Shown one piece after another: positions 9,486 to 24,317 of a DNA stretch of 64,000 bases. This DNA comes from a virus. Under the pieces are notes generated by a model. The model saw only the letters and a list, made by a program, of their open reading frames with translations, was not told where the DNA came from and ran no database searches. The stretch's first letter is position 1; every line of letters starts with the position of its first letter. Both the position numbers and the translations under genes were made by a program. Location of the stretch: positions 17,906 through 81,905 of the IMG/VR virus record IMGVR_UViG_3300047445_000153; one strand, written 5' to 3'.

Positions 9486-10062
9486 GGTCCACGCCGACAC
9501 GGTGGCCGAAGCCCTGTCGATCTTGAGGCAGTACCCCGGCTTTGACGTGGAGAATCCCACCCCGGTACGCGTGAAGGGCGTAGAGTGCCGCGACGCCGTC
9601 TATGCGCCGACCGAGCTGGAAGAGCTGCACATCTACCCCGCTCTCGCTGGCTCGGGTGGCAACGGCGGTCTGTTTCAGATCATCATTGGCGTGGTGATGG
9701 TTATCGTCGGCATCGTGCTTAGCGTCTTCGGGTACGGCGCTGGCACACCGCTGATTACGAGCGGTGCGATGATGATCCTGGGGGGCATCCTCCAGATGCT
9801 CGCGCCAACCCCGAAGTCGAACACTGGCAGCTCAGACCAGTCGCTCTATGTCCCCTCGAACCAGAACACCGTGAAGATCGGCACGCGCATCCCGCTGATC
9901 TATGGCCGCGTGCGTCACTTCGGGCACTACCTGTCGTTCAACGTCGACTCGAAGCGCCTGGACGACAGCACCATGAACCTTGCTGGCTACTGTAGCGGTC
10001 GCACCGACGCCAACGGGAACCGATACTCCTACGGCCAGGATGGCCACTGCCTGCTCGCATAA
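9430..10062 (+). CDS. Tail assembly protein (gpI-like)
   Basis: Ubiquitin-like N-terminus, hydrophobic Gly-rich segment, NTVKIGTRIPLIYG. Confidence 0.85.
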   Translation: MKTIYLHGSLKELHPEPIKVHADTVAEALSILRQYPGFDVENPTPVRVKGVECRDAVYAPTELEELHIYPALAGSGGNGGLFQIIIGVVMVIVGIVLSVFGYGAGTPLITSGAMMILGGILQMLAPTPKSNTGSSDQSLYVPSNQNTVKIGTRIPLIYGRVRHFGHYLSFNVDSKRLDDSTMNLAGYCSGRTDANGNRYSYGQDGHCLLA

Positions 10063-10063
10063 T

Positions 10064-13000
10064 ATGACCGACGCCGTAATCAACTACCCGAAACTCAGCG
10101 GAGCCGGTGGGGGCCAGAAGCAGCCCAGCCGCACCGACGACAACCTTTTCTCGCGCGACGTGGTAGAGATGGTCTTCGCCCTCGGTGAAGGCCCGATTCG
10201 TGGCCCGGTCGATGGCATGAAGACGATCTACGTCGGCGGGACCCCGCTGATGTCTCAGGACGGGAGTGTCAACTTCGACAGCTTCAACGTCGGGATCATG
10301 CGGGGCCACGCGGGCGATCCCCCGGTCAACTACCGCCTCGGCGGTGAGACGTCGAATACCGCGGTGGGCGTGCGGCTCTTCCAAGGGACTTGGGTCAGCC
10401 GAGCCACCAATGATTCGTTGAAGGGCAAGGTTGACCAGCTGCAAGCGCGGATGCTCTTCAACACGTTGTACAAGTCGAATGACGATGGCACGTTCAATCA
10501 CACCGCGTCATTCGAGATCCAGTACCGCCAATCCACCAGCCCGAACTGGACGGCGGTCAACGGTGGAACGATCAACGTCACGGGCAAGACGACGGCGGGG
10601 TATGTCGTCGACTACGTGTGGGACGTGCCGCGTGTGAACGACACGTGGGTCATCCGGGTGAAGAAGAACAACCCTGATTCAAGCACCACAGATTTCGCCG
10701 ACTTCAGCTGGGAGTCCTTTCAAGAGGTCACGAAGGGCAACCGCACGTACGATCGCGTGGCGCTCATGCACGTCGTCGCGCTCGCGACTAGCCAGTTCGG
10801 CTCGGTTCCGGAAATCGGCCTCGATATTGACGGTCTTGAGATCTTGGTCCCGACGAACTACAACCCGGATCTGCGTACCTACTCTGGTGCCTGGGATGGG
10901 TCGTTCAAGCAGGCGTGGACGAACAACCCTGCGTGGGTTCTCTATGACCTGATCATGAACCCCAACTACGGGCTGCGAAAGTACTACCCGTGGTTGACCT
11001 GCAATCGCTTTGACTTCTACGACGCTGCGGTGTTTTGCGATACGCCAGTGGCGAACGGACGGGGTGGGGCGCAGCCGCGCTACACGTTCAACATGTCGAT
11101 CAAGGACCAGCAGTCTGGGCTGGACATGTTGCAATACGTGGCGGGCTCGTTCGGTGCGATCATCTTTGATGACGCGACTGGAATGGTCCATCTGCGCGTC
11201 GACAAGTGGGAAGAACCCACCCTGCTCTTCACTCCCGAGAACGTGACGCCCGAGGGCTTCACCTACACGTTCACGGACATGACGACTCGATACAACGATC
11301 TCACCGTCAAGTTCGTGAACCCAGATCTTGACTGGCAAGAGGACATTCGTCCCGCTCGCAGCCCGGACCACATCGCTCTGAACGGAAGCATTCCGCTCAC
11401 CTTCGATGCTGTTGGCTGTACCGACGAGCATGAAGCGCTGCGTCGTGCCCACTACCGCCTCATCACGGCGACGACGGAATGCGCCACGGTGACGTTCACG
11501 ACCGCGCGGCTCGGTGTCCTTCTCGACCCGTACAAGACGATCTACGTCGCCGACCCAGTGACGGGCTGGGCTACGAGCGGCCGGATCAAGTCGATCGCTA
11601 ACGGCAAGATCAACCTTCGTGACCCGATCTACTTCACGCAGAACCAGAACTTCGGCCTTCGCTTGCAAACGACCACCGGGCTCGTGAACCTCGTGGTCAA
11701 CCCAGGCAAGGTCGGCGCGGTGTACGAGCTGTTGATCGTGAGCGGCGTGCTGCCGCCTAACATCCCTGACCGCACCGTGTTCTCGATCGAGGACAACGGC
11801 GGCTTCGGCTTGGCCAAGCCGTTCCGCGTCATGTCGATTGAACCGGTCGACAACAACCCGAACCAGTTCACTATCACTGCTGTTGAGATGAACGTCAACA
11901 AGCAGTGGGCGGCAGACAACTGCATCCCAATTGGTTCGGTTCCCTACTCGTTCAAGAACCCGTTGATCCCGCCCCCGCCAACCAACCTCGTTGCCGAGTC
12001 CGGTACCGACATGCTGCTGCTCGGCCAGGATGGTTCGATCATGGCGCGGATCTTCGCGCACTGGGACCCACCGGGCAACGCGCTGGTCGAGAAGTACATC
12101 ATCCGCTGGCGCGAAAGCCTCCAGTCGACGTGGTTCGAGACGAACAGCACGGGTGAAGGCGTGATCCTTGCACCTTGCAAGACCGGTACCCTGTACGACA
12201 TCGTGGTGGAGGCGGTGAGCGCGTTCGGCTACCGCAGCGCGCAGCTCGCGATGTGGAACTACAAGTGTGTCGGCAAGGACCAGCCCCCGAGCAACGTGAA
12301 GAACTTCCGCTTCGAGCGGCGCGCACTCGACATCCTGCTGAGCTGGGACGCGATCCCTGACCTCGACCGCTTCGGCTACGAGATCCGGCTGGGAGACACG
12401 TGGGATACCGCGAAGGTTCTGATCACTGACTATGCGGCGACGAAGTATGCGTGGACGACGGATACGGGAGGCTCGTACAGCTTCCTGATCCGAGCGAAGG
12501 ATACGTCGGGTAACTACTCGCCGCAGGCCACGCTGTGCTTGGCGCTCCTCGCTGGACCGTCGCCGGTCAGCGGTGTGATCGCGGTTCAGTCGGGCAACTT
12601 CGTCGACATCCGCTGGGACCCGAATCCCGAGGACAACATTCTCGACTACGAGATCCGTGAAGGAGCTACCTGGGCCACCGCGATCTTTCTCGCGAAGGTC
12701 AAGTCTACGAGCTACCACGTGACGGCGGGCGCCGCGGGCACGCGCCTATTCTGGCTCAAGGCCATCGCTTCACCGGGGATCTACTCCGACAAGGCGACGT
12801 TCGTCACGACCGACATCGCGAAGTCCGACAACACCAACCTGCTGTACACGACCGACGAAGTGGTGAACAACTTCCAAGGTGCGAAGTACAACATGGTCAC
12901 GTACGGCCCGAACCAGCTGCGTATGGACGACGGCCAAACCAAGTCGGAGTACATGTTCTCGGTCGCGCTGCCCGATGTGTTCAAGGCGCAGAACAGCTTG

Positions 13001-13657
13001 TTCATCGGGCTGAACGCCATCGTCGACGACAAGACGACGTGGGCTCAATCCACGTTCCCCTGGAATGACCCGATCGCAAACAAGACATGGACGACGCCGG
13101 GTGACGTCGCCTCGATCGTGTATAGCATCCAGATCGCAATGTCGGTAGGACTCCCGGCTAATGTCCTGTACCAGTGGCGGCTCGACAACGTGCTCACCTA
13201 CGCGGGCACCGGCGAGGATGGTGCGGTGGTCGAGAACCAGACCGTCACCTACAAGCCGAGCAAGTTCGGGGCGGGCCTCTGGTGTCAGGTCGCGCCGCTT
13301 CAACCGCTGCCGACTAAGGTGAAGTACAGCACCAACGTGCCGAACGCTTTCTCGATGAGCTTCTGGATCCTTCCTGATGACCTGACCGACAAGGTCTTCG
13401 CCACCGTGGTTGGCCGGGATGGCAAGTTCATCCGCATCGGCTACACCGCAGCTACGCAGTCACTGTATGCGATCGACAACGATGGTACGAAGGTATCGAT
13501 GCCGGTTGGTCTGCTTGTCGGCCAGCGCTACCTCGTCGGCTTGTCGCAGGACTTGAACGATCGCCGGATCTACTTCGGCAAAGAGAATGGCGCGTGGTAT
13601 CGCGCGTCGATCGCGAAGGCTGGCATTGGTGCCGGAATCTACGTCCAACTGTATTGA
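10064..13657 (+). CDS. Central tail tip / host specificity protein (gpJ-like)
   Basis: LGEGPIRG, WDGSFKQAWTNNPAWVLYDL, QPRYTFN, FN3-like repeats, C-terminal LamG-like region; ATG at 10064 preferred. Confidence 0.92.
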   Translation: MTDAVINYPKLSGAGGGQKQPSRTDDNLFSRDVVEMVFALGEGPIRGPVDGMKTIYVGGTPLMSQDGSVNFDSFNVGIMRGHAGDPPVNYRLGGETSNTAVGVRLFQGTWVSRATNDSLKGKVDQLQARMLFNTLYKSNDDGTFNHTASFEIQYRQSTSPNWTAVNGGTINVTGKTTAGYVVDYVWDVPRVNDTWVIRVKKNNPDSSTTDFADFSWESFQEVTKGNRTYDRVALMHVVALATSQFGSVPEIGLDIDGLEILVPTNYNPDLRTYSGAWDGSFKQAWTNNPAWVLYDLIMNPNYGLRKYYPWLTCNRFDFYDAAVFCDTPVANGRGGAQPRYTFNMSIKDQQSGLDMLQYVAGSFGAIIFDDATGMVHLRVDKWEEPTLLFTPENVTPEGFTYTFTDMTTRYNDLTVKFVNPDLDWQEDIRPARSPDHIALNGSIPLTFDAVGCTDEHEALRRAHYRLITATTECATVTFTTARLGVLLDPYKTIYVADPVTGWATSGRIKSIANGKINLRDPIYFTQNQNFGLRLQTTTGLVNLVVNPGKVGAVYELLIVSGVLPPNIPDRTVFSIEDNGGFGLAKPFRVMSIEPVDNNPNQFTITAVEMNVNKQWAADNCIPIGSVPYSFKNPLIPPPPTNLVAESGTDMLLLGQDGSIMARIFAHWDPPGNALVEKYIIRWRESLQSTWFETNSTGEGVILAPCKTGTLYDIVVEAVSAFGYRSAQLAMWNYKCVGKDQPPSNVKNFRFERRALDILLSWDAIPDLDRFGYEIRLGDTWDTAKVLITDYAATKYAWTTDTGGSYSFLIRAKDTSGNYSPQATLCLALLAGPSPVSGVIAVQSGNFVDIRWDPNPEDNILDYEIREGATWATAIFLAKVKSTSYHVTAGAAGTRLFWLKAIASPGIYSDKATFVTTDIAKSDNTNLLYTTDEVVNNFQGAKYNMVTYGPNQLRMDDGQTKSEYMFSVALPDVFKAQNSLFIGLNAIVDDKTTWAQSTFPWNDPIANKTWTTPGDVASIVYSIQIAMSVGLPANVLYQWRLDNVLTYAGTGEDGAVVENQTVTYKPSKFGAGLWCQVAPLQPLPTKVKYSTNVPNAFSMSFWILPDDLTDKVFATVVGRDGKFIRIGYTAATQSLYAIDNDGTKVSMPVGLLVGQRYLVGLSQDLNDRRIYFGKENGAWYRASIAKAGIGAGIYVQLY

Positions 13658-13659
13658 TC

Positions 13660-14121
13660 ATGCCGCACACAATCTCTGACGTTACGATCAAGTCAACCCT
13701 GCTCGACGACGACAGCTTCCCGGCGTTGCTCTACGGCGACGCCCCAGCTGGCTTCTCGAAGTTCCAAAACTTCTTCGCGGGTGACTACACCTACAAGAAC
13801 GCGATCTTCCGCCTCGGGATGGAGTCGGAGAACGGGGACCGGGGCATCATCGAAAAGCTCCAGCTGGTCGTCGATGTCCCCGACATCTTCGACCGGGGCT
13901 CGAAGATCATCAACGTGGCGAACAGCGTGCACGTCAACTTCAACCGCACGTTCCACATTCCACCCACGATGGTCGTGGCCGTGGAGAGCGCGAGTGATGC
14001 GTGCGTGGCGCGCGTGGTGGACGGCTCGGTGACGAAGACGGGCTTCGACTGCTACCTCGAACGTACGGTGGACAAGGCGAAGATCACAGGCGCGCTGACC
14101 TGGGCTGCGCACGCGTACTAA
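13660..14121 (+). CDS. Tail tip-associated protein (H-type lectin-like C-terminus)
   Basis: VNFNRTFHIPP..VTKTGFDC..WAAHAY pattern; follows gpJ. Confidence 0.5.
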   Translation: MPHTISDVTIKSTLLDDDSFPALLYGDAPAGFSKFQNFFAGDYTYKNAIFRLGMESENGDRGIIEKLQLVVDVPDIFDRGSKIINVANSVHVNFNRTFHIPPTMVVAVESASDACVARVVDGSVTKTGFDCYLERTVDKAKITGALTWAAHAY

Positions 14122-14156
14122 AACTCCTTGGGCGCGCTGGCCCGCGCCCGTAAAAT
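14120..14156 (+). promoter_or_regulatory. Promoter of fibre/radical SAM operon
   Basis: TTGGGC(14128-14133)-N17-TAAAAT(14151-14156). Confidence 0.5.
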
Positions 14157-14180
14157 TCGGGAACCAGAGGACACCACCAC

Positions 14181-15662
14181 ATGCAGCAATACACTCAGAT
14201 TCCAGACAGTGCGCGAGTCTCCGACTCGCTGCTGCCGCTCCTGAATAACGACCAGACCGCGATCTCGCGCAACTCCGGCCCGAACTTCCCGACCGTGGGG
14301 CTGGTCGTTGGCATGCCCTACTACAGCACGAGCCAGAACAAGCTCTATCGGCTGTCGAGCGTGTCACCGCTCACGTGGGTGGTCGAGCTGGATTACACGC
14401 GTCCCTTCGCCTATCAGGACAGCGTGGACGCGGCTAACGCGAACGCGAACGCGCGGGTGTCGCGAGCTGGCGACACCATGACCGGTTACCTGACGCTGGT
14501 CAACGACCCGGTCTCCGCGCTGCACGCCGCGTCGAAACGGTACGTCGATGCACAGGCAACGAATGCAATCAACAGCGCGAACTCGCGGGTCTCGCGTGGC
14601 GGCGACAGCATGTCGGGGTTCCTGACGCTGTACACCGATCCACAGCAGCCCTACCACGCCGCGACGAAGAACTACGTCGACTACCTCTACAACGTGGTGC
14701 AGGGCGCGAAGCTGAACCGTAACGGTGACACGCTCGGAGAGGTCTTCAACAACGGCTGGTACCGCTCGAACGGCGTGACGGGCTGGTACAGCCAGACCTT
14801 CGGCGGCGGGATCTTCATGCAGGATACGTCCAACGTGCGTATCTACGGCGGCAAGGGCTTCAGCACCGACTGGCACTCGCTCGAACAGGGCACGGGGATG
14901 ATTTGGACGAGTGGCTACGGCTGGCTTCACGAGCGCTTCGCGTCCAAGAGCGCCGAGGGCGCCCTGACTTCGGTCGGTACGCTGAACAGCCAGCCGAGTG
15001 GCGTCGTGCTGCCGCAGGCTTTCTACCTCCAGAAGAGCGGCAGTCAGGTGCAGCTGGTGCGTACGCTCGGCAACTGCAACTGCAACTGCGCCTGCACGTG
15101 CTTCCCGGCTGGGACGCGGATCCTGATGGGCGACCGCAAGACGTGGCGCACCGTTGAGTCGCTGATGGTTGGCGAGATCGTCATGACCCCCACCGGCCCC
15201 GAGCCGATCATCGAGATCGAGACGCCGTTCCTCGGCGAGCGCTCGATGTGCATGTTCGCCGACGGCTCGCTCAAGTGGACCGATGACCATGCGTTCTGGA
15301 CGCGCCGCGACGGCGTGGAAGGCTTCGCGGTGGTCGACAAGGCCTCGTTCATGAACGGGGTCCATGCGGGCGTCGTGAAGGGCCTGAATGACCATGACGA
15401 CCTACTGGAGCTGAACGACAAGCTCGACGAGTTCGCGCATCTCGATGGCTGGAAGAAGAAACGCGTGTTCCGCTACCCCGCCCCCGCCGAGACCAAGGTC
15501 TACCTGCCGATCGTCGGTGGCTCCCACATGATCATCGCGGAAGGCTTCGTCGTCAGCGCTGGCATGGACGAAGCCACCTTCGACTACGACAGCTTCGAGT
15601 GGAAGGGCATGGCCCTCGCCCACGTGCCGCTCAACAAGGAGCTGTTCAATGCTCGTCCATAA
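14181..15662 (+). CDS. Tail fibre with CxCxCxCxC motif and C-terminal Hint domain
   Basis: GDTMTG and DP...HAA.K.YVD fibre repeats; GWYSQTFGGGIFMQD module; GNCNCNCACT then CFPAGTRILM (Hint block A), TDDH (block B), VYLPIVGGSHMIIAEGFVVSA (block F/G without His-Asn). Confidence 0.85.
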   Translation: MQQYTQIPDSARVSDSLLPLLNNDQTAISRNSGPNFPTVGLVVGMPYYSTSQNKLYRLSSVSPLTWVVELDYTRPFAYQDSVDAANANANARVSRAGDTMTGYLTLVNDPVSALHAASKRYVDAQATNAINSANSRVSRGGDSMSGFLTLYTDPQQPYHAATKNYVDYLYNVVQGAKLNRNGDTLGEVFNNGWYRSNGVTGWYSQTFGGGIFMQDTSNVRIYGGKGFSTDWHSLEQGTGMIWTSGYGWLHERFASKSAEGALTSVGTLNSQPSGVVLPQAFYLQKSGSQVQLVRTLGNCNCNCACTCFPAGTRILMGDRKTWRTVESLMVGEIVMTPTGPEPIIEIETPFLGERSMCMFADGSLKWTDDHAFWTRRDGVEGFAVVDKASFMNGVHAGVVKGLNDHDDLLELNDKLDEFAHLDGWKKKRVFRYPAPAETKVYLPIVGGSHMIIAEGFVVSAGMDEATFDYDSFEWKGMALAHVPLNKELFNARP

Positions 15663-16350
15663 AAGCCTGATCCCCACGGATCTCTCAGAAGAAGACGCCG
15701 CTCGAATCACCGACATCGTCACCGTGCTGCCTACGGAGACGGGCTTCGTCTTGCAGTGCGCATCGCTCAGCCTCTACTGGCAGTTCAACATGAACCTCGT
15801 CCAGTATGGTAACGACATCATGTACTTGACCCGCACGCGCGGAGGTACGTGGGCCGTGATGTGGGCGACGGATCTGCACGAGTCGCGTGACAGCTGGTCT
15901 GAGGCGATGCTGCGCAAGAACGTCGATGAGTTCCGCCCGGTGGTGATGATCGGCATCAACCCCGAGAAGACCGACTACACGGCGATCCTCTTCTGCAACA
16001 CACGCGAACCGAACAACCCGAACCCCACGGTCGACAACTCGACGGACAGCGGCGACATGGCCATGAAGCGGTTGATGCCGAGCATCGAACCGCTGCTGCA
16101 ACGGCACTGGGCCAAGCACAAGCTACTCAAGCACACGAAGACGAACGACTCGCTCGCGGCGCTTGAGGCCCAGGTCGATCTGCTGACGAGCTGGTTGATC
16201 GAGCTGCTGCCTGCTGAGAAGGTGCAGCGACTCATCGATGCGGGCGTGCTGACGCTGAAGGATGAAGCCGCTACCCTCGACGACGTGGTGGCCTTCAAGA
16301 CAGCCTTGCGAGAACGCCAGCAGGTCTACCTCACCACCATCGGCAAATGA
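15649..16350 (+). CDS. Hypothetical protein overlapping both the fibre and radical SAM genes (possible chaperone/adaptor)
   Basis: 14-nt overlap with fibre, ATGA overlap with radical SAM; C-terminal coiled-coil-like SLAALEAQVDLL. Confidence 0.7.
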   Translation: MLVHKSLIPTDLSEEDAARITDIVTVLPTETGFVLQCASLSLYWQFNMNLVQYGNDIMYLTRTRGGTWAVMWATDLHESRDSWSEAMLRKNVDEFRPVVMIGINPEKTDYTAILFCNTREPNNPNPTVDNSTDSGDMAMKRLMPSIEPLLQRHWAKHKLLKHTKTNDSLAALEAQVDLLTSWLIELLPAEKVQRLIDAGVLTLKDEAATLDDVVAFKTALRERQQVYLTTIGK

Positions 16351-17693
16351 CAACCTTCGTCCTCAAAACGGCCGAGGGCCGCGACTTCTTCTACAACAAC
16401 ATGCGCAGCACGCTGGTCGACGCCTGCACGGGTCGCCCCGTGCTCGCTCCGCGAGAGGTTGACACCCCTCGAAGCCCTGCCCCGCAAGACTTCCGCAAGT
16501 CGGAAACGATCCGGACGCTGAAGATCCAGATGGGTCTGTCGTGCAACTACAGCTGCGAGTATTGCTCGCAGCGGTTCGTGCCGCACGCGGAGCCCACCGG
16601 CCCCTACTCGGTCGATCACTTCATCTCGCGCCTGAGCTGGAACGCCTCGCTCGCGGACGACGCCACGGTGGAGTTCTGGGGTGGCGAGCCACTGGTCTAC
16701 TGGAAGACGCTGGTCCCGCTCGTCGAGCAGCTGCGCATTCGCTACCCGGCGCTGACCTTCAAGATGATCACGAACGGGTCGCTGCTCGATCCGATGAAGG
16801 CGAGCTGGCTGATCGCGAATGGCTTCCACATCGGCATCTCGCACGACGGTCCTGGCCAAGCCGCACGCGGGCCGGACCCGCTCGATGATCCCGAGAAGCG
16901 CGAGGCGATCCTGATGCTGTACCGGCGCCTGCGACCGCTCGGGCGTATCAGTTTTAATGCAATGCTGCACTCGCAAAATACATCGCGTGCGGCGATACAA
17001 CAGTTCTTCGTCCGGCTGACGAACGACGCGGAAGTGCCCATCGGCGAGGGCATGTTTGTGGATGCCTACGACGAGGGCGGCAGGGGTATGTCTTTCCTTG
17101 ACGCTCAGGATCACGTCGACTATCGTCGCAAGGCGTTCGACGAGCTGAAGGCGGGGATGGCTCTCAATTTCAGCTCGGTGACCGAGAAGATCTACGACTT
17201 CGCAGACTCCTTGCAAACGGGTCGCTTGGCGTCCACCGTTGGCCAGAAGTGCGGTTCCGATCGCTCCGACAGCCTCACGGTGACGCTCGACGGCGATGTC
17301 CTCACGTGCCAGAACGTATCGGCTGTCTCCGTCGCCCCGAACGGAAAGAGCCACCGGGCTGGCTCGATCGAAGACATGGCTGCGGTGCGCGTGCAGTCCT
17401 CGCGCCACTGGTCGACCCGCGAGCACTGTTCCAGCTGCCCTGTCGTGCAGCTATGCAAAGGCTCTTGCATGTTCCTCGAAGGCGATCTCTGGGATGTCAC
17501 GTGCGATACCGCCTACAGCGATAACGTCGTGTTCCTGGCGACTGCCCTCTTGGAGCTGACAGGCTGTACGTTGCAACGCATCGAGCCGATGACTGGTTCG
17601 CTGCCCGAAACCCGCCAGAGTGTCTTCGGACCTCTGGCGCATAAGCGGACCACCACCCGCAAAATCATACGGATCGAAACGGAAAAATCATGA
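16347..17693 (+). CDS. Radical SAM/SPASM-domain enzyme (peptide/protein maturase type)
   Basis: CNYSCEYC (CxxxCxxC), FWGGEPL, ITNGSLL, ISHDG; SPASM-type C-terminus KCG...DGDVLTC...CSSCPVVQLCKGSC...C. Confidence 0.93.
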   Translation: MTTFVLKTAEGRDFFYNNMRSTLVDACTGRPVLAPREVDTPRSPAPQDFRKSETIRTLKIQMGLSCNYSCEYCSQRFVPHAEPTGPYSVDHFISRLSWNASLADDATVEFWGGEPLVYWKTLVPLVEQLRIRYPALTFKMITNGSLLDPMKASWLIANGFHIGISHDGPGQAARGPDPLDDPEKREAILMLYRRLRPLGRISFNAMLHSQNTSRAAIQQFFVRLTNDAEVPIGEGMFVDAYDEGGRGMSFLDAQDHVDYRRKAFDELKAGMALNFSSVTEKIYDFADSLQTGRLASTVGQKCGSDRSDSLTVTLDGDVLTCQNVSAVSVAPNGKSHRAGSIEDMAAVRVQSSRHWSTREHCSSCPVVQLCKGSCMFLEGDLWDVTCDTAYSDNVVFLATALLELTGCTLQRIEPMTGSLPETRQSVFGPLAHKRTTTRKIIRIETEKS

Positions 17694-18079
17694 GCACACC
17701 GCAAGCACCACAGCCACAGCAAGACCCGATGCCCCTCATCCGCACGTTGCAGGCGCAGCGCAACATGGCGCTCGACCAGCTGGCCGACACCAGCGCCGCG
17801 CTCGAACACGTGCAAGCCGTACTGCGTGGCACGCAGGAACTGGCCGCGAAGCAGCAGTCGGAGATCGACGATCTGAACATGCGGATGGGCAAGACGCTCG
17901 CCGCGCTGGCGAGCATGCAAGACTGCAACGCGAAGCTCACCGAGCAGAACCTCGATCTGCAAATCGATCTGGACGAGGCCCGTCGAGTTCCGGACGCGGA
18001 GATCGCGGTGGCCGTAGAGTCACCGGCAGGCGTGCTGACGCTGCCGGTGGCTTATCCGTCTGCTTCGGACGAGCTGTAA
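17690..18079 (+). CDS. Coiled-coil hypothetical protein
   Basis: ATGA overlap with radical SAM; heptad-rich. Confidence 0.65.
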   Translation: MSTPQAPQPQQDPMPLIRTLQAQRNMALDQLADTSAALEHVQAVLRGTQELAAKQQSEIDDLNMRMGKTLAALASMQDCNAKLTEQNLDLQIDLDEARRVPDAEIAVAVESPAGVLTLPVAYPSASDEL

Positions 18080-18081
18080 TC

Positions 18082-18168
18082 ATGCCCGTCTTCTTGGTCA
18101 TGTGGCTGTTCTGGTCGGTGATCCTGTCGCCGACCCGGCCTTCGGGATACGACCTGCCGAAGCCCTGA
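18082..18168 (+). CDS. Putative 28-aa hydrophobic peptide
   Basis: MPVFLVMWLFWSVILSPTRPSGYDLPKP, 2 nt after upstream stop and before terminator. Confidence 0.3.
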   Translation: MPVFLVMWLFWSVILSPTRPSGYDLPKP

Positions 18169-18193
18169 TACCACGCTGGTTCAAGCTGGTTCC

Positions 18194-18219
18194 AAAGGAC
18201 ACCGAACGGTGTCCTTTTT
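18194..18219 (+). terminator. Intrinsic terminator closing fibre/radical SAM operon
   Basis: AAAGGACACC-GAAC-GGTGTCCTTT plus T run. Confidence 0.75.
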
Positions 18220-19609: not shown

Positions 19610-20103
19610 AAATCACCTTGATCGTTTCAGCCATAGTCGGATTGCTTGGGACTGCTATGGGATGGGGACTCACGCACGGTTATTACCGCAGCGTGCTGGC
19701 TGAGAACGCATTGGCCCTCTCTCAAGCGCAGCAACGCGCGGATTCACTCGCGCTCTTCGCACAAACCCAGTCGACGCTGGTCATCAACCAGATCGACGCG
19801 ACCTATCAGGAAAAGCTCCATGAACAAGATGCTCTCCACGCTCGCGATCTCGCTGATGTTCGTTCCGGTGCTCTGCGGTTGCGGGACTCCGGCGCCAAGT
19901 GCCCCGCCCAAGTTTCAGCTGCCCCCGGCGCCAGCGTCGGTGACGGTCAAGCAGGAGCCGAACTTTCGGCTGCGGCTACTGAATTTCTTCTCAGTGAAGC
20001 CGAACGAGCTGACCGCGTCGCCATTCAGCTTGGCGCCTGCCAACAAGTAATCGAGTCCGACCGCAAGACCCTTGACCAACTCTTCAACAGGATTTCTGAA
20101 TGA
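19606..20103 (+). CDS. i-spanin (Rz-like)
   Basis: N-terminal TM; DVRSGALRL and EAERADRVAIQLGACQ. Confidence 0.85.
   Translation: MKITLIVSAIVGLLGTAMGWGLTHGYYRSVLAENALALSQAQQRADSLALFAQTQSTLVINQIDATYQEKLHEQDALHARDLADVRSGALRLRDSGAKCPAQVSAAPGASVGDGQAGAELSAAATEFLLSEAERADRVAIQLGACQQVIESDRKTLDQLFNRISE
19820..20050 (+). CDS. o-spanin lipoprotein (Rz1-like), embedded in the +1 frame
   Basis: MNKMLSTLAISLMFVPVLCG-C lipobox and Pro-rich mature part, fully nested in Rz. Confidence 0.8.
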   Translation: MNKMLSTLAISLMFVPVLCGCGTPAPSAPPKFQLPPAPASVTVKQEPNFRLRLLNFFSVKPNELTASPFSLAPANK

Positions 20104-23100
20104 CAACGAATACCGGCGTTCCAACAAACCCGGATGGCCAGACACTGGCGCTCGTCGTGGCGCCAGTCCTCTCCACCACGCCGCACGCTGCGAGCAAGAT
20201 CCTGTACGGGTCTGGCGCACCTTCGGCTTCCATCGGCGTTGACGGTGACTTCTACCGCAACCTCGACAACGACGACATGTATGGCCCGAAACTGGCTGGG
20301 GCATGGCCGGATGGGTACTCCATCCGCGGCTTCCAGGGGGACCCCGGTCCGGCTGGACCTGCTGGTCTTCTGGACCCCGAACAACTGGACGACATCGAGA
20401 CGTCGGCCGAGGCAGCGGCAGCGAGCGCAGCGGCATCGGCGCAAAGCGCCGTAGCAGCTGCGGCAAGCGCGACGGCGGCGAACACGTCGAAGGTCGCAGC
20501 GGGCACGAGCGCAACAAACGCCGCAGCCTCCGAGACGGCCTCGAACGCGAGCAAGGTCGCGGCAGCAGCGAGCGCAACCGCAGCATCTGGATTCGCCACG
20601 CAGGCTGCATCTAGCAACACTGGTGCGACCACTGCTGCGACAGACTCGGCCGCAAGCGCAACCGCCGCGAACGCCTCGAAGATCGCAGCAGGGATCTCGG
20701 AAACGAACGCAGCCGCCTCAGCCGTGGCAGCGAACACGTCGAAGGTCGCAGCGGGCGTCTCGGAAGGCAACGCGGCAGCAGCTGCTGTCGCAGCGGGCAT
20801 CGCTCGGGATGAAGCACAGACGGCAGCGCAGCAGGCCCTGCAAGGCGCCGCGCCGATCGTGTCCCCTGCTTTCACCGGCAACCCGACCGCACCGACACCG
20901 GCGACTTCCGACAACGATACTTCGGTCGCGACCACCGCGTTCGTGAAGGCAGCAATCGCAGCAGCGGGTGGTGGCGGCGGCGGCGCAGTGTCGACCGTCG
21001 CGGGCCGCACGGGCGACATCCTGCTCACAATCGCAGACGTGACGGGCGGCGCACCGCTGGCCTCCCCCACCTTCACGGGAGATCCGAAGGCACCGACCCC
21101 GGCAACCAGCGACAACGACACGTCGATCGCGACCACCGCGTTCGTGAAAGCGCAGGCCTACGCCCCGCTCTTGTCGCCTGCCCTGACGGGTACGCCGACT
21201 GCACCGACTGCGGCGGCTGGGACCAGCACAACCCAGCTGGCCACCACCGCGTTCGTCACCGCAGCAATGGCAGCGGGCGCAGGCAGCGGCGATGCGGGTG
21301 TGCGCTTCGTCGAGTCGTTCCCCTCGGGCGGCACCGACGACACGACCCAGCTGACCAACGCGCTCGCGTGGCTTCAGGCTGCTCCGCGTCGCACGCTGGC
21401 GATGCAGCACAACAAGGCCTACACGCTCGGCCACCAGATCACGGTGCAAGGCGCGTCGTGGTTCCGCATCGAAGTCAACGGCGCGACCATCAAGGCAGCG
21501 AATGGCATGCCCTGCCAGTTCGGTGACTGGATGCTGAACTTCGTGAGCTGTACGGATGGTGTGATCGTCGACCTGAACTTGGACGGCAACCGCGCGAACC
21601 GCCCGGTGGTCGTTGGTCTGCAAGAGGCACACAACATCCGCGTGTGGAACAACTGCAAGCGCATCACGTTCGTGCGTACCCAGTCCGACAATGGGTGCTG
21701 TGACGGCTTCTACATCGGTGCGGACGACGTGACGAACCTGTCCACGTTCCCGACCGACATCCGGCAGATCGATTGCGGCGCAAACAACTCGTTCCGCAAC
21801 GGGCTGTCGCTGATCAACTCGGTCAACTTCGAGGACTACAGAGGCGCCTACAACAACTCGGTCGGCACGGCGCCTGAAGATGGTGTGGATTGCGAACCGA
21901 ACGGTGACGTGGCTTCTGGTGACCTGGGCAACATCAACCCGCGCTTCTACCACACGACGGCCAACGGCAACAGCGGTCTCGGGTTCCAGATCTTCCTCGA
22001 CTCCAACCACGGTGTGAAGCTGTACGACGTCACGGCCAGCGGCAACATCTCGGGTGCAGTCAGCGCATTCCGCGGTGGTGTCGAGATCTACGGCATCACG
22101 CTGGAAGGTAGGCCGGGGATGGATACCGACCGGGGGGTGATCGACTTGGCGGGTGCTGGCGCGGGCTTGAGCGTCATCAAGGACGTCGTGGCGCGTGACT
22201 ACATCACGAACGACAACGACCTCCGTCCGATTGTCTTCGTCGACGTCGACGTGGCGGGACCTGTCACGGTCGATAACGTGAAGACGTTCGACTGTGACTG
22301 CCCGATCCTGATTGCCAACTCCCCGGTTGAGCTGGCGCAGAACCTCGAAGCGCATGGCCAGATGGGTGGCTACACCGTCAAGCTGATGGCGGGGGCTGAC
22401 CAGTCTACGCTCAAGGGCATCACGGCCCACGACGGCCAGCTGGGCGTGTACGTCAACGCACCGGATGTCTCGGTGAACGACGTGAAGCTCCACAATCTGG
22501 AAGTCACCGCCCCGTTGATCGTGTTCGACACGGGCGCGCTGCGGCCCTCGCTCGACGGTGTCGAGCTGTTCCAAGACGCGGGCGTGCCGTCCGGCCAGAT
22601 CGGGGTGTCCTTCGCACAGGCTCCGGTACGCGCGACCAACATCGTCGGTCACGTGCGGACTGGCACGGCCTGGACGCCGACGACGCTCATCTCGTTCGCA
22701 GGCGGCACCACGGGCTCGCTGATCGCCAACAACTCGCCGTCGACGGTCAGCTCGGGTGTGGCTCCGCTCGCCTCCCCGGCTTTCACTGGCAACCCCACCG
22801 CGCCCACCCCGGCGACGTCCGACAACGATACATCGGTCGCGACGACCGCTTTCGTGAAGGCGGCAATCGCCGCAGCTGGCACGGGTAGTGGCGCACCGCT
22901 CGACTCCCCGGTCTTCACCGGCAACCCGACCGCACCGACACCGGCCACGTCGGACAACGACACGAGCCTCGCGACGACGGCGTTCGTGAAAGCGCAGGCG
23001 TACGCACCGCTCGCCTCCCCCGCCTTCACCGGCAACCCGACCGCGCCCACTCCGAGCGCTGGTGACAACGACACGTCGGTCGCGACGACGGCCTTTGTCA

Positions 23101-24317
23101 CGGCTGCGATCGCAGCTGCGGGCACGGGTGGTGGCGGCACGACCACGGTGCGGCAGACGGCGCTGCGCAACTGGAAGAAGTCGAACACCAGCAAGATCGC
23201 GGCGCTCATGGGCCGTGGCCAGTCTGGTTTCGGCCGTGGCCGGATCCTCGGCATCGGCGACTCGTTCACGGCGGGGTTCGCGGGAGCAGGCACGTCCTTC
23301 ACGAACGGACGCTCGCAGTCGTTCCTCACGCATCTCGCCCGAGCGATGGCCGCACGGGGCATGAAGGCGACGGCGGATTGGGCGGTGGGTGACGGCAACT
23401 CGGGCGACGTGCCGCTGGTCTACGATCCGCGACTGGTGCTCAGCGGGGGTGCGAGCCTGCTGGATACCTCTTTCAAGTGCCTCGGTGGCAGCGGCTGGAC
23501 GATGGATGGTACCGGCAACCGGATCACCTTCACGCCGGTGGACGCGGCAGGCGTGGCGATTGCGTTCGACACGGTCGAAGTGCTGGTGATGTGTAACAAC
23601 AACACCGGGGTGTCGGGCAACTTCGACGTGTTCTACAACGGCAATTTCACCACGCCTGCGCAGACGGTCACCAGCAACGACATCATGGGCGTGAAGAAGG
23701 TCACGCTCACGGTGCCCGGTGCGGCTGGCACGACGGCGAACTCGGTGACGTTCCAGCGCAAGACCAATACGACGTTCATCGCGGCGGTCGGCACGCGGGT
23801 TGCATCCAAACCCGGCATCGAGATCATCAACGCGGGTAGCACGGGCACGCCGCTGGCGACGTATGCAGCAGCCCCCGGCTCTACCAGCGGCTCGGGTGAC
23901 TCGAACACGTGGAACACGCGTGCAGCGGCGAACGTGCTGATGGACACGAACGCGGTCAACGTGACGTTTATCAACGGCTGGTACAACGACAAGGATGCAG
24001 CCTCGACGATCGCCGCCACGCAGACGCAGCTCGCCAACCTGATCACCGCCGCGAAGGCTTGGGGTGATGTGGTCTTCATCGGCTACGCGCCGCTCGACCC
24101 GAGCGACACCACGCTGACCCTCTACAACCAGTGGCAGGATGCGATGTATGCGACGTGTATCGCCGCTGACATCCCGATCATCGATCCGCCCGCACTGCTG
24201 CCGGTGTATGCAACCGGCGTGTCGTACGGGCTGTACGGTGACTCGCTGCACTTGAACGGTTCCGGCCATGCGCTCATCGCGCGATCCATCCTCGAAGCTA
24301 TGAGTGACATCGCGTAA
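20100..24317 (+). CDS. Large fibre/tailspike: Ala-rich stalk, fibre repeats, parallel beta-helix and C-terminal SGNH esterase
   Basis: Collagen-like GDPGPAGPAG; six SPAFTGNPTAPT..DNDT..ATTAFV-type repeats; GGTDDT..L..AL beta-helix start; SGNH blocks GDSF, INAG..G, WYND, DSLH. Confidence 0.82.
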   Translation: MTTNTGVPTNPDGQTLALVVAPVLSTTPHAASKILYGSGAPSASIGVDGDFYRNLDNDDMYGPKLAGAWPDGYSIRGFQGDPGPAGPAGLLDPEQLDDIETSAEAAAASAAASAQSAVAAAASATAANTSKVAAGTSATNAAASETASNASKVAAAASATAASGFATQAASSNTGATTAATDSAASATAANASKIAAGISETNAAASAVAANTSKVAAGVSEGNAAAAAVAAGIARDEAQTAAQQALQGAAPIVSPAFTGNPTAPTPATSDNDTSVATTAFVKAAIAAAGGGGGGAVSTVAGRTGDILLTIADVTGGAPLASPTFTGDPKAPTPATSDNDTSIATTAFVKAQAYAPLLSPALTGTPTAPTAAAGTSTTQLATTAFVTAAMAAGAGSGDAGVRFVESFPSGGTDDTTQLTNALAWLQAAPRRTLAMQHNKAYTLGHQITVQGASWFRIEVNGATIKAANGMPCQFGDWMLNFVSCTDGVIVDLNLDGNRANRPVVVGLQEAHNIRVWNNCKRITFVRTQSDNGCCDGFYIGADDVTNLSTFPTDIRQIDCGANNSFRNGLSLINSVNFEDYRGAYNNSVGTAPEDGVDCEPNGDVASGDLGNINPRFYHTTANGNSGLGFQIFLDSNHGVKLYDVTASGNISGAVSAFRGGVEIYGITLEGRPGMDTDRGVIDLAGAGAGLSVIKDVVARDYITNDNDLRPIVFVDVDVAGPVTVDNVKTFDCDCPILIANSPVELAQNLEAHGQMGGYTVKLMAGADQSTLKGITAHDGQLGVYVNAPDVSVNDVKLHNLEVTAPLIVFDTGALRPSLDGVELFQDAGVPSGQIGVSFAQAPVRATNIVGHVRTGTAWTPTTLISFAGGTTGSLIANNSPSTVSSGVAPLASPAFTGNPTAPTPATSDNDTSVATTAFVKAAIAAAGTGSGAPLDSPVFTGNPTAPTPATSDNDTSLATTAFVKAQAYAPLASPAFTGNPTAPTPSAGDNDTSVATTAFVTAAIAAAGTGGGGTTTVRQTALRNWKKSNTSKIAALMGRGQSGFGRGRILGIGDSFTAGFAGAGTSFTNGRSQSFLTHLARAMAARGMKATADWAVGDGNSGDVPLVYDPRLVLSGGASLLDTSFKCLGGSGWTMDGTGNRITFTPVDAAGVAIAFDTVEVLVMCNNNTGVSGNFDVFYNGNFTTPAQTVTSNDIMGVKKVTLTVPGAAGTTANSVTFQRKTNTTFIAAVGTRVASKPGIEIINAGSTGTPLATYAAAPGSTSGSGDSNTWNTRAAANVLMDTNAVNVTFINGWYNDKDAASTIAATQTQLANLITAAKAWGDVVFIGYAPLDPSDTTLTLYNQWQDAMYATCIAADIPIIDPPALLPVYATGVSYGLYGDSLHLNGSGHALIARSILEAMSDIA

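Follow-up and report, generated by a model that had tools for sequence, protein, structure and literature searches.

We analysed a 64,000-nucleotide (nt) stretch of viral DNA, hereafter the window, which spans bases 17906–81905 of the 81,905-bp IMG/VR record IMGVR_UViG_3300047445_000153 (rated complete by CheckV). Within it, four consecutive genes on the + strand encode a 493-amino-acid (aa) tail-fibre precursor, a 233-aa accessory protein, a 448-aa radical S-adenosylmethionine (SAM) enzyme with a SPASM domain and a 129-aa protein. The fibre body ends in an alternating row of asparagines and cysteines, the Asn-Cys ladder, whose last cysteine is also the first residue of a Hint (hedgehog/intein-type) domain. 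We find that ladder and enzyme form a near-obligate pair, and we read the module, with moderate confidence, as a virion-protein maturation system in which the enzyme would modify the ladder covalently, the formation of thioethers being the leading candidate for the chemistry. A previous sequence-only reading of this DNA had proposed that the phage treats a structural fibre like the precursor of a ribosomally made, post-translationally modified peptide (RiPP), an idea that the comparative evidence presented here supports.

The gene at 14181..15662 (+ strand) encodes, judging from its homology to fibres and its place in the tail module, a tail fibre. Its matches to PHROG tail fibres are weak (best E-value, 4e-6), and its N-terminal part is common to many proteins carrying the fibre domains PF07484, PF13884, PF03406 and PF03906. 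The fibre body terminates NCNCNCACT, immediately followed by the cysteine that opens the Hint domain; across the ladder the protein reads ...TLGNCNCNCACTCFPAGTRILMGD, or, in a longer excerpt, ...GNCNCNCACTCFPAGT... The ladder itself, N298–C307 (NCNCNCACTC), occupies 15072..15101 (+ strand). Counting from 14181, its cysteines are residues 299, 301, 303, 305 and 307, and G297–C307 corresponds to nt 15069–15101, exactly as the sequence-only reading had placed them. The 64-kb window contains the DNA word for NCNCNC a single time (15072–15089), and none of 100 shuffles contains it. In an alignment of 26 homologues, C299, N300, C301, C303, C305 and C307 are kept in at least 90% of the sequences. A strand-like pattern of Y, F and V precedes the ladder, in which cysteine stands at every second position, and the window ladder contains three overlapping NxxC units (N298-C-N-C301, N300-C-N-C303 and N302-C-A-C305).

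Orthologues of the window fibre that have no Hint domain end ...NCNCNCNCSNN, ...NCNCACCGG or ...NCNCACDCC, and because they end there, a free C-terminal end right behind the ladder appears as the constant feature. Among 77 distinct tails, a run holds 3–9 cysteines, five being the commonest number. The residue preceding a ladder cysteine is N in 72% of cases, A in 12%, D in 8%, and T and Q in 2% each, the first three ladder positions being N in 72, 74 and 67 of the 77 tails. After the last cysteine, 30 tails have nothing, 34 have 1–7 residues, 3 have 10–11 and 10 have a Hint domain. Across loci, the length of the ladder protein varies between 65 and 616 aa.

The sequence-only reading had suggested looking at whether homologues of the enzyme gene (16347–17693) regularly lie beside fibres with an (xC)n end, Hint-fused or not, and the answer was positive from all three starting points that we used. 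Starting from the enzyme, homology yielded 22 viral and 4 genomic loci; 22 of the 26 carry an upstream ladder open reading frame (ORF) on the same strand, either terminal or Hint-fused, and the other four have no upstream DNA. For the start from the motif, IMG/VR was scanned for the DNA word of NCNCNCxC; this gave at least 120 stretches, of which the first 80 loci were analysed. They contain 33 ORFs of at least 100 aa with the word no more than 25 aa from the stop, and 26 of these are followed by the enzyme, on the same strand and 22–2580 nt downstream; for the remaining seven, the downstream flank is just 262–1946 nt long. At 48 loci the word falls in ORFs that are short or AT-rich, or that are small, Cys-rich and unrelated. 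The enzyme is present in six of them, and each of the six has an explanation: two are small precursors, one belongs to the window's own clade, one is a cut ORF, one has its gene order reversed and one is a duplicate on the opposite strand. Starting from the fibre, N-terminal homology to the Hint-less relative P0063 gave 39 loci (three ORFs being cut by contig ends). The ladder or Hint ORF is complete at 34 of them; the enzyme is present at 32 of these, and the flanks of the remaining two are 863 and 1239 nt long. Two distant fibres devoid of a ladder have no enzyme within flanks of 5559 and 2934 nt.

Pooling the 189 loci and merging near-identical ones gave 168 groups, which we scored with a permissive ladder pattern: 87 have ladder and enzyme, 51 have neither, 7 have the enzyme alone, 16 have a ladder with a short flank and 7 have an apparent ladder only. 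The enzyme-only groups are cut contigs, the two-cysteine tail of phage RSP15 and Hint forms outside the pattern. On inspection, the apparent ladder-only groups proved to be wrong-frame or AT-rich ORFs, or real ladders with a short flank. Overall, these counts describe a near-obligate pairing of ladder and enzyme.

The pairing is found in a variety of settings. In Achromobacter phage JWF, all four genes recur in unchanged order, with a fibre reading ...NCNCDCNCNCSC directly before FPAGT. Ralstonia phage RSP15 (Ackermannviridae) encodes, three genes upstream of its enzyme, a 'side tail fiber' whose end is NCQCGN. The jumbo Ralstonia phage RP12 (NC_041911) has a 65-aa ORF, unannotated and ending NCNCNCACTRGSL (L003:990-1187), upstream of three consecutive radical SAM genes; its C-terminal stretch reads ...YDNYGSNCNCNCACTRGSL, and locus L058 has a similar ORF of 79 aa, both of which look like true short precursors. 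Across jumbo, Ackermannviridae and siphovirus records, identity to the window enzyme drops to 25–37%. Between ladder and enzyme lie zero to about six genes, with none at loci L088, L092, L105 and L121 (gaps of 19–62 nt), and two or three ladder genes stand in tandem at L143, L144, L092 and L047.

Several loci show unusual forms of these proteins. At L143:5630-6542 and L144:9632-10544, three tandem genes of 92–109 aa each end in an NC ladder and resemble the multiple precursors of RiPP clusters. The proteins at L047:7672-8405 and L109:8635-9219 consist of long (C-Q-x)n repeats (CQTCQGCQSCQ...) followed by an NC ladder and then ...SDDS; the enzyme beside them is 26% identical to that of the window and has ladder genes on both sides. 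At L066:10116-11009 the order is reversed, the enzyme coming first, and a 297-aa Cys/Asn-rich protein carries a ladder followed by a 169-aa non-Hint domain (SKIICTKLFSLGMM...). Eight loci (L038, L039, L040, L041, L048, L064, L082 and L103) encode small proteins of 39–91 aa (...KC[KE]NCNCNCHC...) that contain the word and have no enzyme homologue in the locus; they probably belong to an unrelated metal-binding family.

Judged by its conserved residues, the enzyme (16347..17693, + strand), our candidate ladder maturase, is a radical SAM protein with the full seven-cysteine SPASM set. The CxxxCxxC motif is present as CNYSCEYC, and none of its cysteines (C66, C70, C73) varies among 35 sequences; C302, C321, C361, C364, C370, C374 and G316 are likewise invariant, with C386 conserved in at least 90% of the sequences; the general SPASM pattern is C..G-x4-C..CxxCx5Cx3C..C. 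The enzyme matches phrog_1802 (E = 1.9e-60) and, over residues 302–376, the SPASM profile TIGR04085 with 34.7 bits against a cut-off of 27, while PF04055 scores 28.7 bits against a gathering threshold of 29.5. The radical SAM/SPASM identity given by the sequence-only reading is thus upheld by a TIGR04085 score above cut-off and by the conserved cysteines of core and SPASM domain. The family is large, with 686 clusters (50% identity) at E ≤ 1e-30.

Profile matches to solved structures are all radical SAM proteins: 8vpo (2.3e-21), the anaerobic sulfatase-maturating enzyme anSME (2.8e-17 and 3.5e-17; entries 4k36–4k39) and CteB (5wgg, 3.8e-16), with which the phage enzyme shares the radical SAM core and the SPASM domain. 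The entry 8vpo is reportedly cited by a paper on cyclopropylglycine synthases, which form C–C bonds. The anSME profile TIGR03942 reaches 46.6 bits against a cut-off of 349.45, aligned over positions 7–324, and the PapB profile NF047865 reaches 57.7 bits against 340 with the N-terminal core aligned alone. In profile alignments, the site of C302 holds a single cysteine in the phage family and in CteB, whereas anSME has additional cysteines there (SCGMNGTCTC). The extra anSME cysteine beside this site closes the first auxiliary cluster; CteB has an open iron site on that cluster, which is bound by a substrate cysteine. We read the phage family like CteB in this respect, with a putative open iron site on the auxiliary cluster. 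The GenBank label of the JWF enzyme, 'anaerobic sulfatase-maturating enzyme', is unsupported. A complex prediction for the enzyme with fibre residues 186–306, SAM and three 4Fe-4S clusters gave scores of 0.09 and 0.30, against a mark of 0.32, and is neutral with regard to binding.

The Hint domain covers residues 307–493 (15099..15662, + strand). The Pfam match to Hom_end_hint is weak (E = 0.12) and its alignment sets Cys307 on profile position 1. An AlphaFold2 model built from 26 sequences has a predicted local distance difference test (pLDDT) score of ~85–93 over most of residues 311–470, with two blocks near 70. Foldseek returned 37 matches in the PDB at E ≤ 0.001; among the matches listed, all are bacterial intein-like (BIL), intein or hedgehog domains, the best being BIL2 6y75 (E = 5.7e-7, template modelling score of 0.78 on the target), with hedgehog 1at0 also among the top. 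Block A reads CFPAGT and block B WTDDH, with SEEH, SDEH and TGDH as variants in the homologue alignment, and C307 is kept in at least 90% of homologues. A Hint domain beginning at Cys307, as the sequence-only reading had it, is therefore confirmed by the modelled fold and by the place of C307 in the profile. Relative to hedgehog and BIL domains, the phage Hint has the same fold, position-1 cysteine and TxxH block, and differs in being fused to a fibre end and in using the last ladder cysteine as its nucleophile.

Inteins carry HN at the end of the domain, and the C-terminal asparagine and a following nucleophile are needed for splicing; for a Hint domain without the C-terminal asparagine, only N-terminal cleavage is predicted. 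In the phage domain the last residues are ...VVSAG; a variable tail comes next, and there is no downstream extein. As SAG replaces the asparagine required for splicing, only N-terminal cleavage is expected, and the domain is probably of the cleavage-only type. Since Hint-less orthologues stop after the ladder, the predicted cleavage should yield the same end, which favours the proposal of the sequence-only reading that Hint cleavage exposes the Cys/Asn/Thr tail. The Hint state requires at least two changes on a quick tree of 45 enzymes. Hint forms are found also at L092 and in 300-aa Cys/Asn-rich proteins of the P0039 type, a relative of which, at L150, has the enzyme directly downstream. Phage fibres and spikes are known to carry C-terminal Peptidase_S74 chaperones, which remove themselves after aiding maturation; both these and the phage Hint are removable C-terminal domains, of unrelated fold and chemistry. 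At L013, L016 and L018, the fibre ORF ahead of a small ladder protein has a helical C-terminal tail, which we tentatively take for such a chaperone.

From these elements we infer the cleavage, the target of the enzyme, the chemistry, the order of the steps and the benefit to the phage as follows. The fibre would be made as a 493-aa precursor; the Hint domain would catalyse an N-to-S acyl shift at Thr306–Cys307 and excise itself, leaving a 306-aa fibre ending ...NCNCNCACT, the type of end that Hint-less relatives encode directly. The thiol of a ladder cysteine would ligate the iron left open in the first of the auxiliary 4Fe-4S clusters; the enzyme would abstract hydrogen from a neighbouring Asn, Asp or Ala, at its beta (or alpha) carbon, so that a C–S thioether forms. 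Repeated bridging is conceivable because each N-C-x-C is an NxxC unit, and such repeated action would convert a reactive row of thiols into a bridged tip that is stable and rigid. It appears quite likely that the ladder serves the enzyme as substrate in the first place, as this is the best explanation of the near-obligate pairing. For the chemistry being specifically thioether formation, we would put the chance slightly short of even.

We favour the thioether on four grounds. First, the ladder consists of NxxC units with acceptors like those of NxxcB. NxxcB, which acts on the streptococcal RiPP precursor NxxcA, joins Cys to the Asn beta-carbon in NxxC, accepts Ala, Gln and Asp in place of that Asn and has been proposed to keep the Cys thiol on its auxiliary cluster (PMC9389541); the N, A, D and Q that precede ladder cysteines are acceptors used or tolerated by NxxcB. 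The likeness lies in the substrate motif, shared NxxC units and acceptor alphabet. NxxcA is described there as a short quorum-regulated peptide, whereas the phage substrates are proteins of 65–616 aa with overlapping C-terminal repeats. Second, the SPASM cysteines of the family are of the CteB kind. Third, SPASM enzymes cross-link whole proteins: according to PMC13692751, CrpC (Methanococcus voltae) and QhpD install thioether (ranthionine) links in CrpA and QhpC, respectively, and QhpD engages a leader through its recognition element. As would hold for the phage module, the SPASM enzyme is encoded beside its Cys-rich protein substrate in both cases; CrpA and QhpC are cellular (an archaeal protein and an enzyme subunit), whereas the phage substrate would be a virion fibre with a Hint-capped site, and the word 'phage' is absent from PMC13692751. 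Fourth, at least five free thiols on an extracellular particle would presumably otherwise be a liability.

The alternative that fares best is that the enzyme acts on the ladder by another chemistry, namely formation of formylglycine or dehydroalanine, C–C links, epimerisation, or thioethers between the chains of the trimer. We regard this as unlikely, though not negligibly so. It gains from the alignment of anSME along most of the enzyme (TIGR03942 positions 7–324; 4k36), anSME being an enzyme that oxidises Cys to formylglycine, and from 8vpo, the top profile match, given its reported connection with cyclopropylglycine synthases. Interchain links would draw on the geometry of a strand, in which alternation puts all cysteines on one face, where they could sit on the three-fold axis. 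It loses from the TIGR03942 score of 46.6 bits against 349, from the missing cysteine next to C302 and from the anSME target C/S-x-P/A-x-R, which is not found in the ladder; furthermore, the near-constant Asn beside each Cys suits a donor–acceptor pair better than an oxidation of Cys only.

Distinctly less probable is a ladder that works as a metal- or iron-sulfur-binding strip without covalent modification by the enzyme, comparable to the HxH motifs of T4 gp37, which are iron sites, or the CxC of metallothionein; metal binding by the CxC pairs had already been put forward as an alternative in the sequence-only reading. CxC repeats are classic thiolate ligands, and the cysteines stand at alternate positions after a strand-like pattern, as such a strip would have them; it would, however, leave unexplained both the enzyme beside the ladder wherever the flank suffices and the frequent 2-oxoglutarate (2OG) oxygenase described below, and we know of no SPASM enzyme that serves as a metal chaperone. 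Finally, that the pair is merely inherited synteny, with the enzyme's substrate elsewhere (a small molecule, a nucleic acid or another virion protein), is very improbable: many loci do come from related phages and most ladder proteins have a common C-terminal domain, but the pair survives down to 25–37% enzyme identity across jumbo, Ackermannviridae and siphovirus records, with ladder proteins of 65–616 aa, zero to about six intervening genes and one reversed locus, and the ladder-less fibre relatives, only two in number, are also without enzyme.

Returning to covalent maturation of the ladder, and to thioether formation in particular, a number of observations weigh against it. Some contigs were reached by several routes and many of the phages are related, so that our counts are of loci and not of independent events. 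The 72 distinct ladder proteins form nine BLAST clusters by their N-terminal part, and the largest (52 of 72) is united by a conserved ~110-aa C-terminal domain preceding the ladder; as these proteins share it, some of the pairing reflects joint inheritance. All NCBIfam equivalog scores of the enzyme lie far under their cut-offs, and for this reason the family is taken as a clade of its own; sequence homology leaves the chemistry unfixed, and the closest solved profile match is 8vpo, followed by anSME. A PqqD-like recognition element was matched neither in the enzyme nor in the 233-aa protein among the Pfam and NCBIfam matches listed (for the enzyme, the best 25 of 42 NCBIfam families), and the enzyme has only ~50 residues ahead of its core. 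Overlapping NxxC rings on one strand may be sterically awkward, and in the AlphaFold2 monomer model the ladder region has a pLDDT below 50 and is unreliable.

The accessory genes were counted over 98 enzyme loci, which were not de-duplicated. The 233-aa protein (15649..16350, + strand) has 19 relatives at E ≤ 0.001, the window's own included, some of them at the Hint-less loci L018, L019 and L027. Its model is confident (pLDDT 89.5); there was no match in Pfam, PHROGs or NCBIfam, and none to the PDB by Foldseek at E ≤ 0.001, Atlas feature scores reach at most 0.85, and a wide VIA-align search peaked at Z = 5.4, with hits including helical hairpins and SPP1 gp22 (Z = 5.3), none convincing. Relatives occur in 31 of the 98 loci, and a family of immunoglobulin (Ig)-like proteins in 54, with a co-occurrence of 0. 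The Ig-like proteins (245–310 aa; L020:4420-5154, L017:4510-5364 and L022:3899-4789) end ...ALGLEPGD..VKVG and are unrelated to the 233-aa protein, for which they may be alternative helpers. As two-gene systems without it exist, the 233-aa protein is not required for the core chemistry and is probably a dispensable helper.

In 52 of the 98 loci, a family of ~200-aa proteins lies between the ladder gene and the enzyme (L015:5198-5821, L017:5364-5972, L027:3837-4580 and relatives). Its H114, P145 and H175 are invariant, the first histidine standing within an H-x-E consensus, and 18 of 22 members match the Pfam family 2OG-FeII_Oxy_5 (best E, 2.4e-21). This suggests a 2OG-Fe(II) oxygenase that performs a second tailoring step, e.g. 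hydroxylation, in many phages; the family is absent from the window's genome. Another accessory family, of 287 aa and marked by 'HPYDM', is unnamed; its Atlas neighbour cluster contains 16% Asp_Arg_Hydrox members, which serves as a lead only.

The fourth gene of the unit (17690..18079, + strand) encodes the 129-aa protein, predicted to be helical or coiled-coil, with a weak Pfam match to Myosin_tail (E = 0.0013); ORFs of 91–134 aa occupy the same slot in JWF and at L004–L012. The successive overlaps between the four genes are 14, 4 and 4 nt in the ORF list, which bears out the overlapping stop/start regions described by the sequence-only reading. Its further claim of one unit running from promoter to terminator holds for the latter part only. 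An intrinsic-terminator-like hairpin at 18194..18217 (+ strand), with a 10-bp stem, a 4-nt loop and a T-rich tail, ends the unit, and a terminator is annotated at the equivalent place in JWF. The promoter-like site at 14128..14156 (+ strand; TTGGGC-17-TAAAAT) is unconfirmed: counted by eye, it has 3/6 and 5/6 consensus matches, and it falls below the threshold of a sigma-70 promoter scan. A GC-rich inverted repeat (GGGCGCG-6 nt-CGCGCCC) at 14130–14150, inside the 59-nt gap 5′ of the fibre gene, overlaps it. Given the scan result and this overlap, we do not count the promoter, and the four genes may be a plain continuation of the late tail operon.

Upstream, the second gene before the fibre (9980–13657) encodes a gpJ-like tip protein, assigned from its ORF and Pfam. 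Between the two lies a 175-aa ORF (13594–14121) with a weak H-type lectin match (E = 0.0011). It ends ...LTWAAHAY, and ends of the same type (...TWAAHAY, ...SWVAQGY) precede ladder fibres at other loci. On the 3′ side of the terminator stands a GH19-type endolysin gene, followed by small ORFs that we took for holin and spanin genes. After these lysis genes, 20100–24317 encodes a 1405-aa protein with alanine-rich repeats and a weak C-terminal match to GDSL/SGNH hydrolases (E = 3.9e-4). A nucleotide search of the phage collection returned no match.

Our literature search, which did not extend to supplementary files, found no paper in which phage fibres or an Asn-Cys ladder are linked to a radical SAM enzyme. 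The GenBank labels of the JWF genes, 'anaerobic sulfatase-maturating enzyme' and 'Hom_end-associated Hint family protein', show that the parts had been seen earlier and not connected. The reading as a putative RiPP-type SPASM chemistry on virion fibres with a Hint cap is supported here by comparison of sequences, and, with 686 clusters in the enzyme family, it would be a widespread and apparently undescribed trait. More tentatively, tailed phages of several types may use RiPP-like virion chemistry to build a thioether stack at the ends of their receptor-binding fibres, possibly across the three chains and often with a 2OG oxygenase, so that the tip would be locked covalently, the Hint domain acting as a self-removing cap that times the appearance of the free end.

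Fibre tips determine which bacteria a phage infects. The proposal is directly testable, since JWF is an isolated and sequenced phage with a recorded host and the same four genes. If it is true, a viral structural protein would for the first time be seen to undergo radical SAM modification, virions would have a new class of cross-link, and RiPP-type enzymology would reach beyond short peptides to structural proteins of large size. For phage engineering, a transplanted fibre would then need its own enzyme. The radical shaping or hardening of fibre tips would constitute an unrecognised layer of virion assembly, stability and host recognition.

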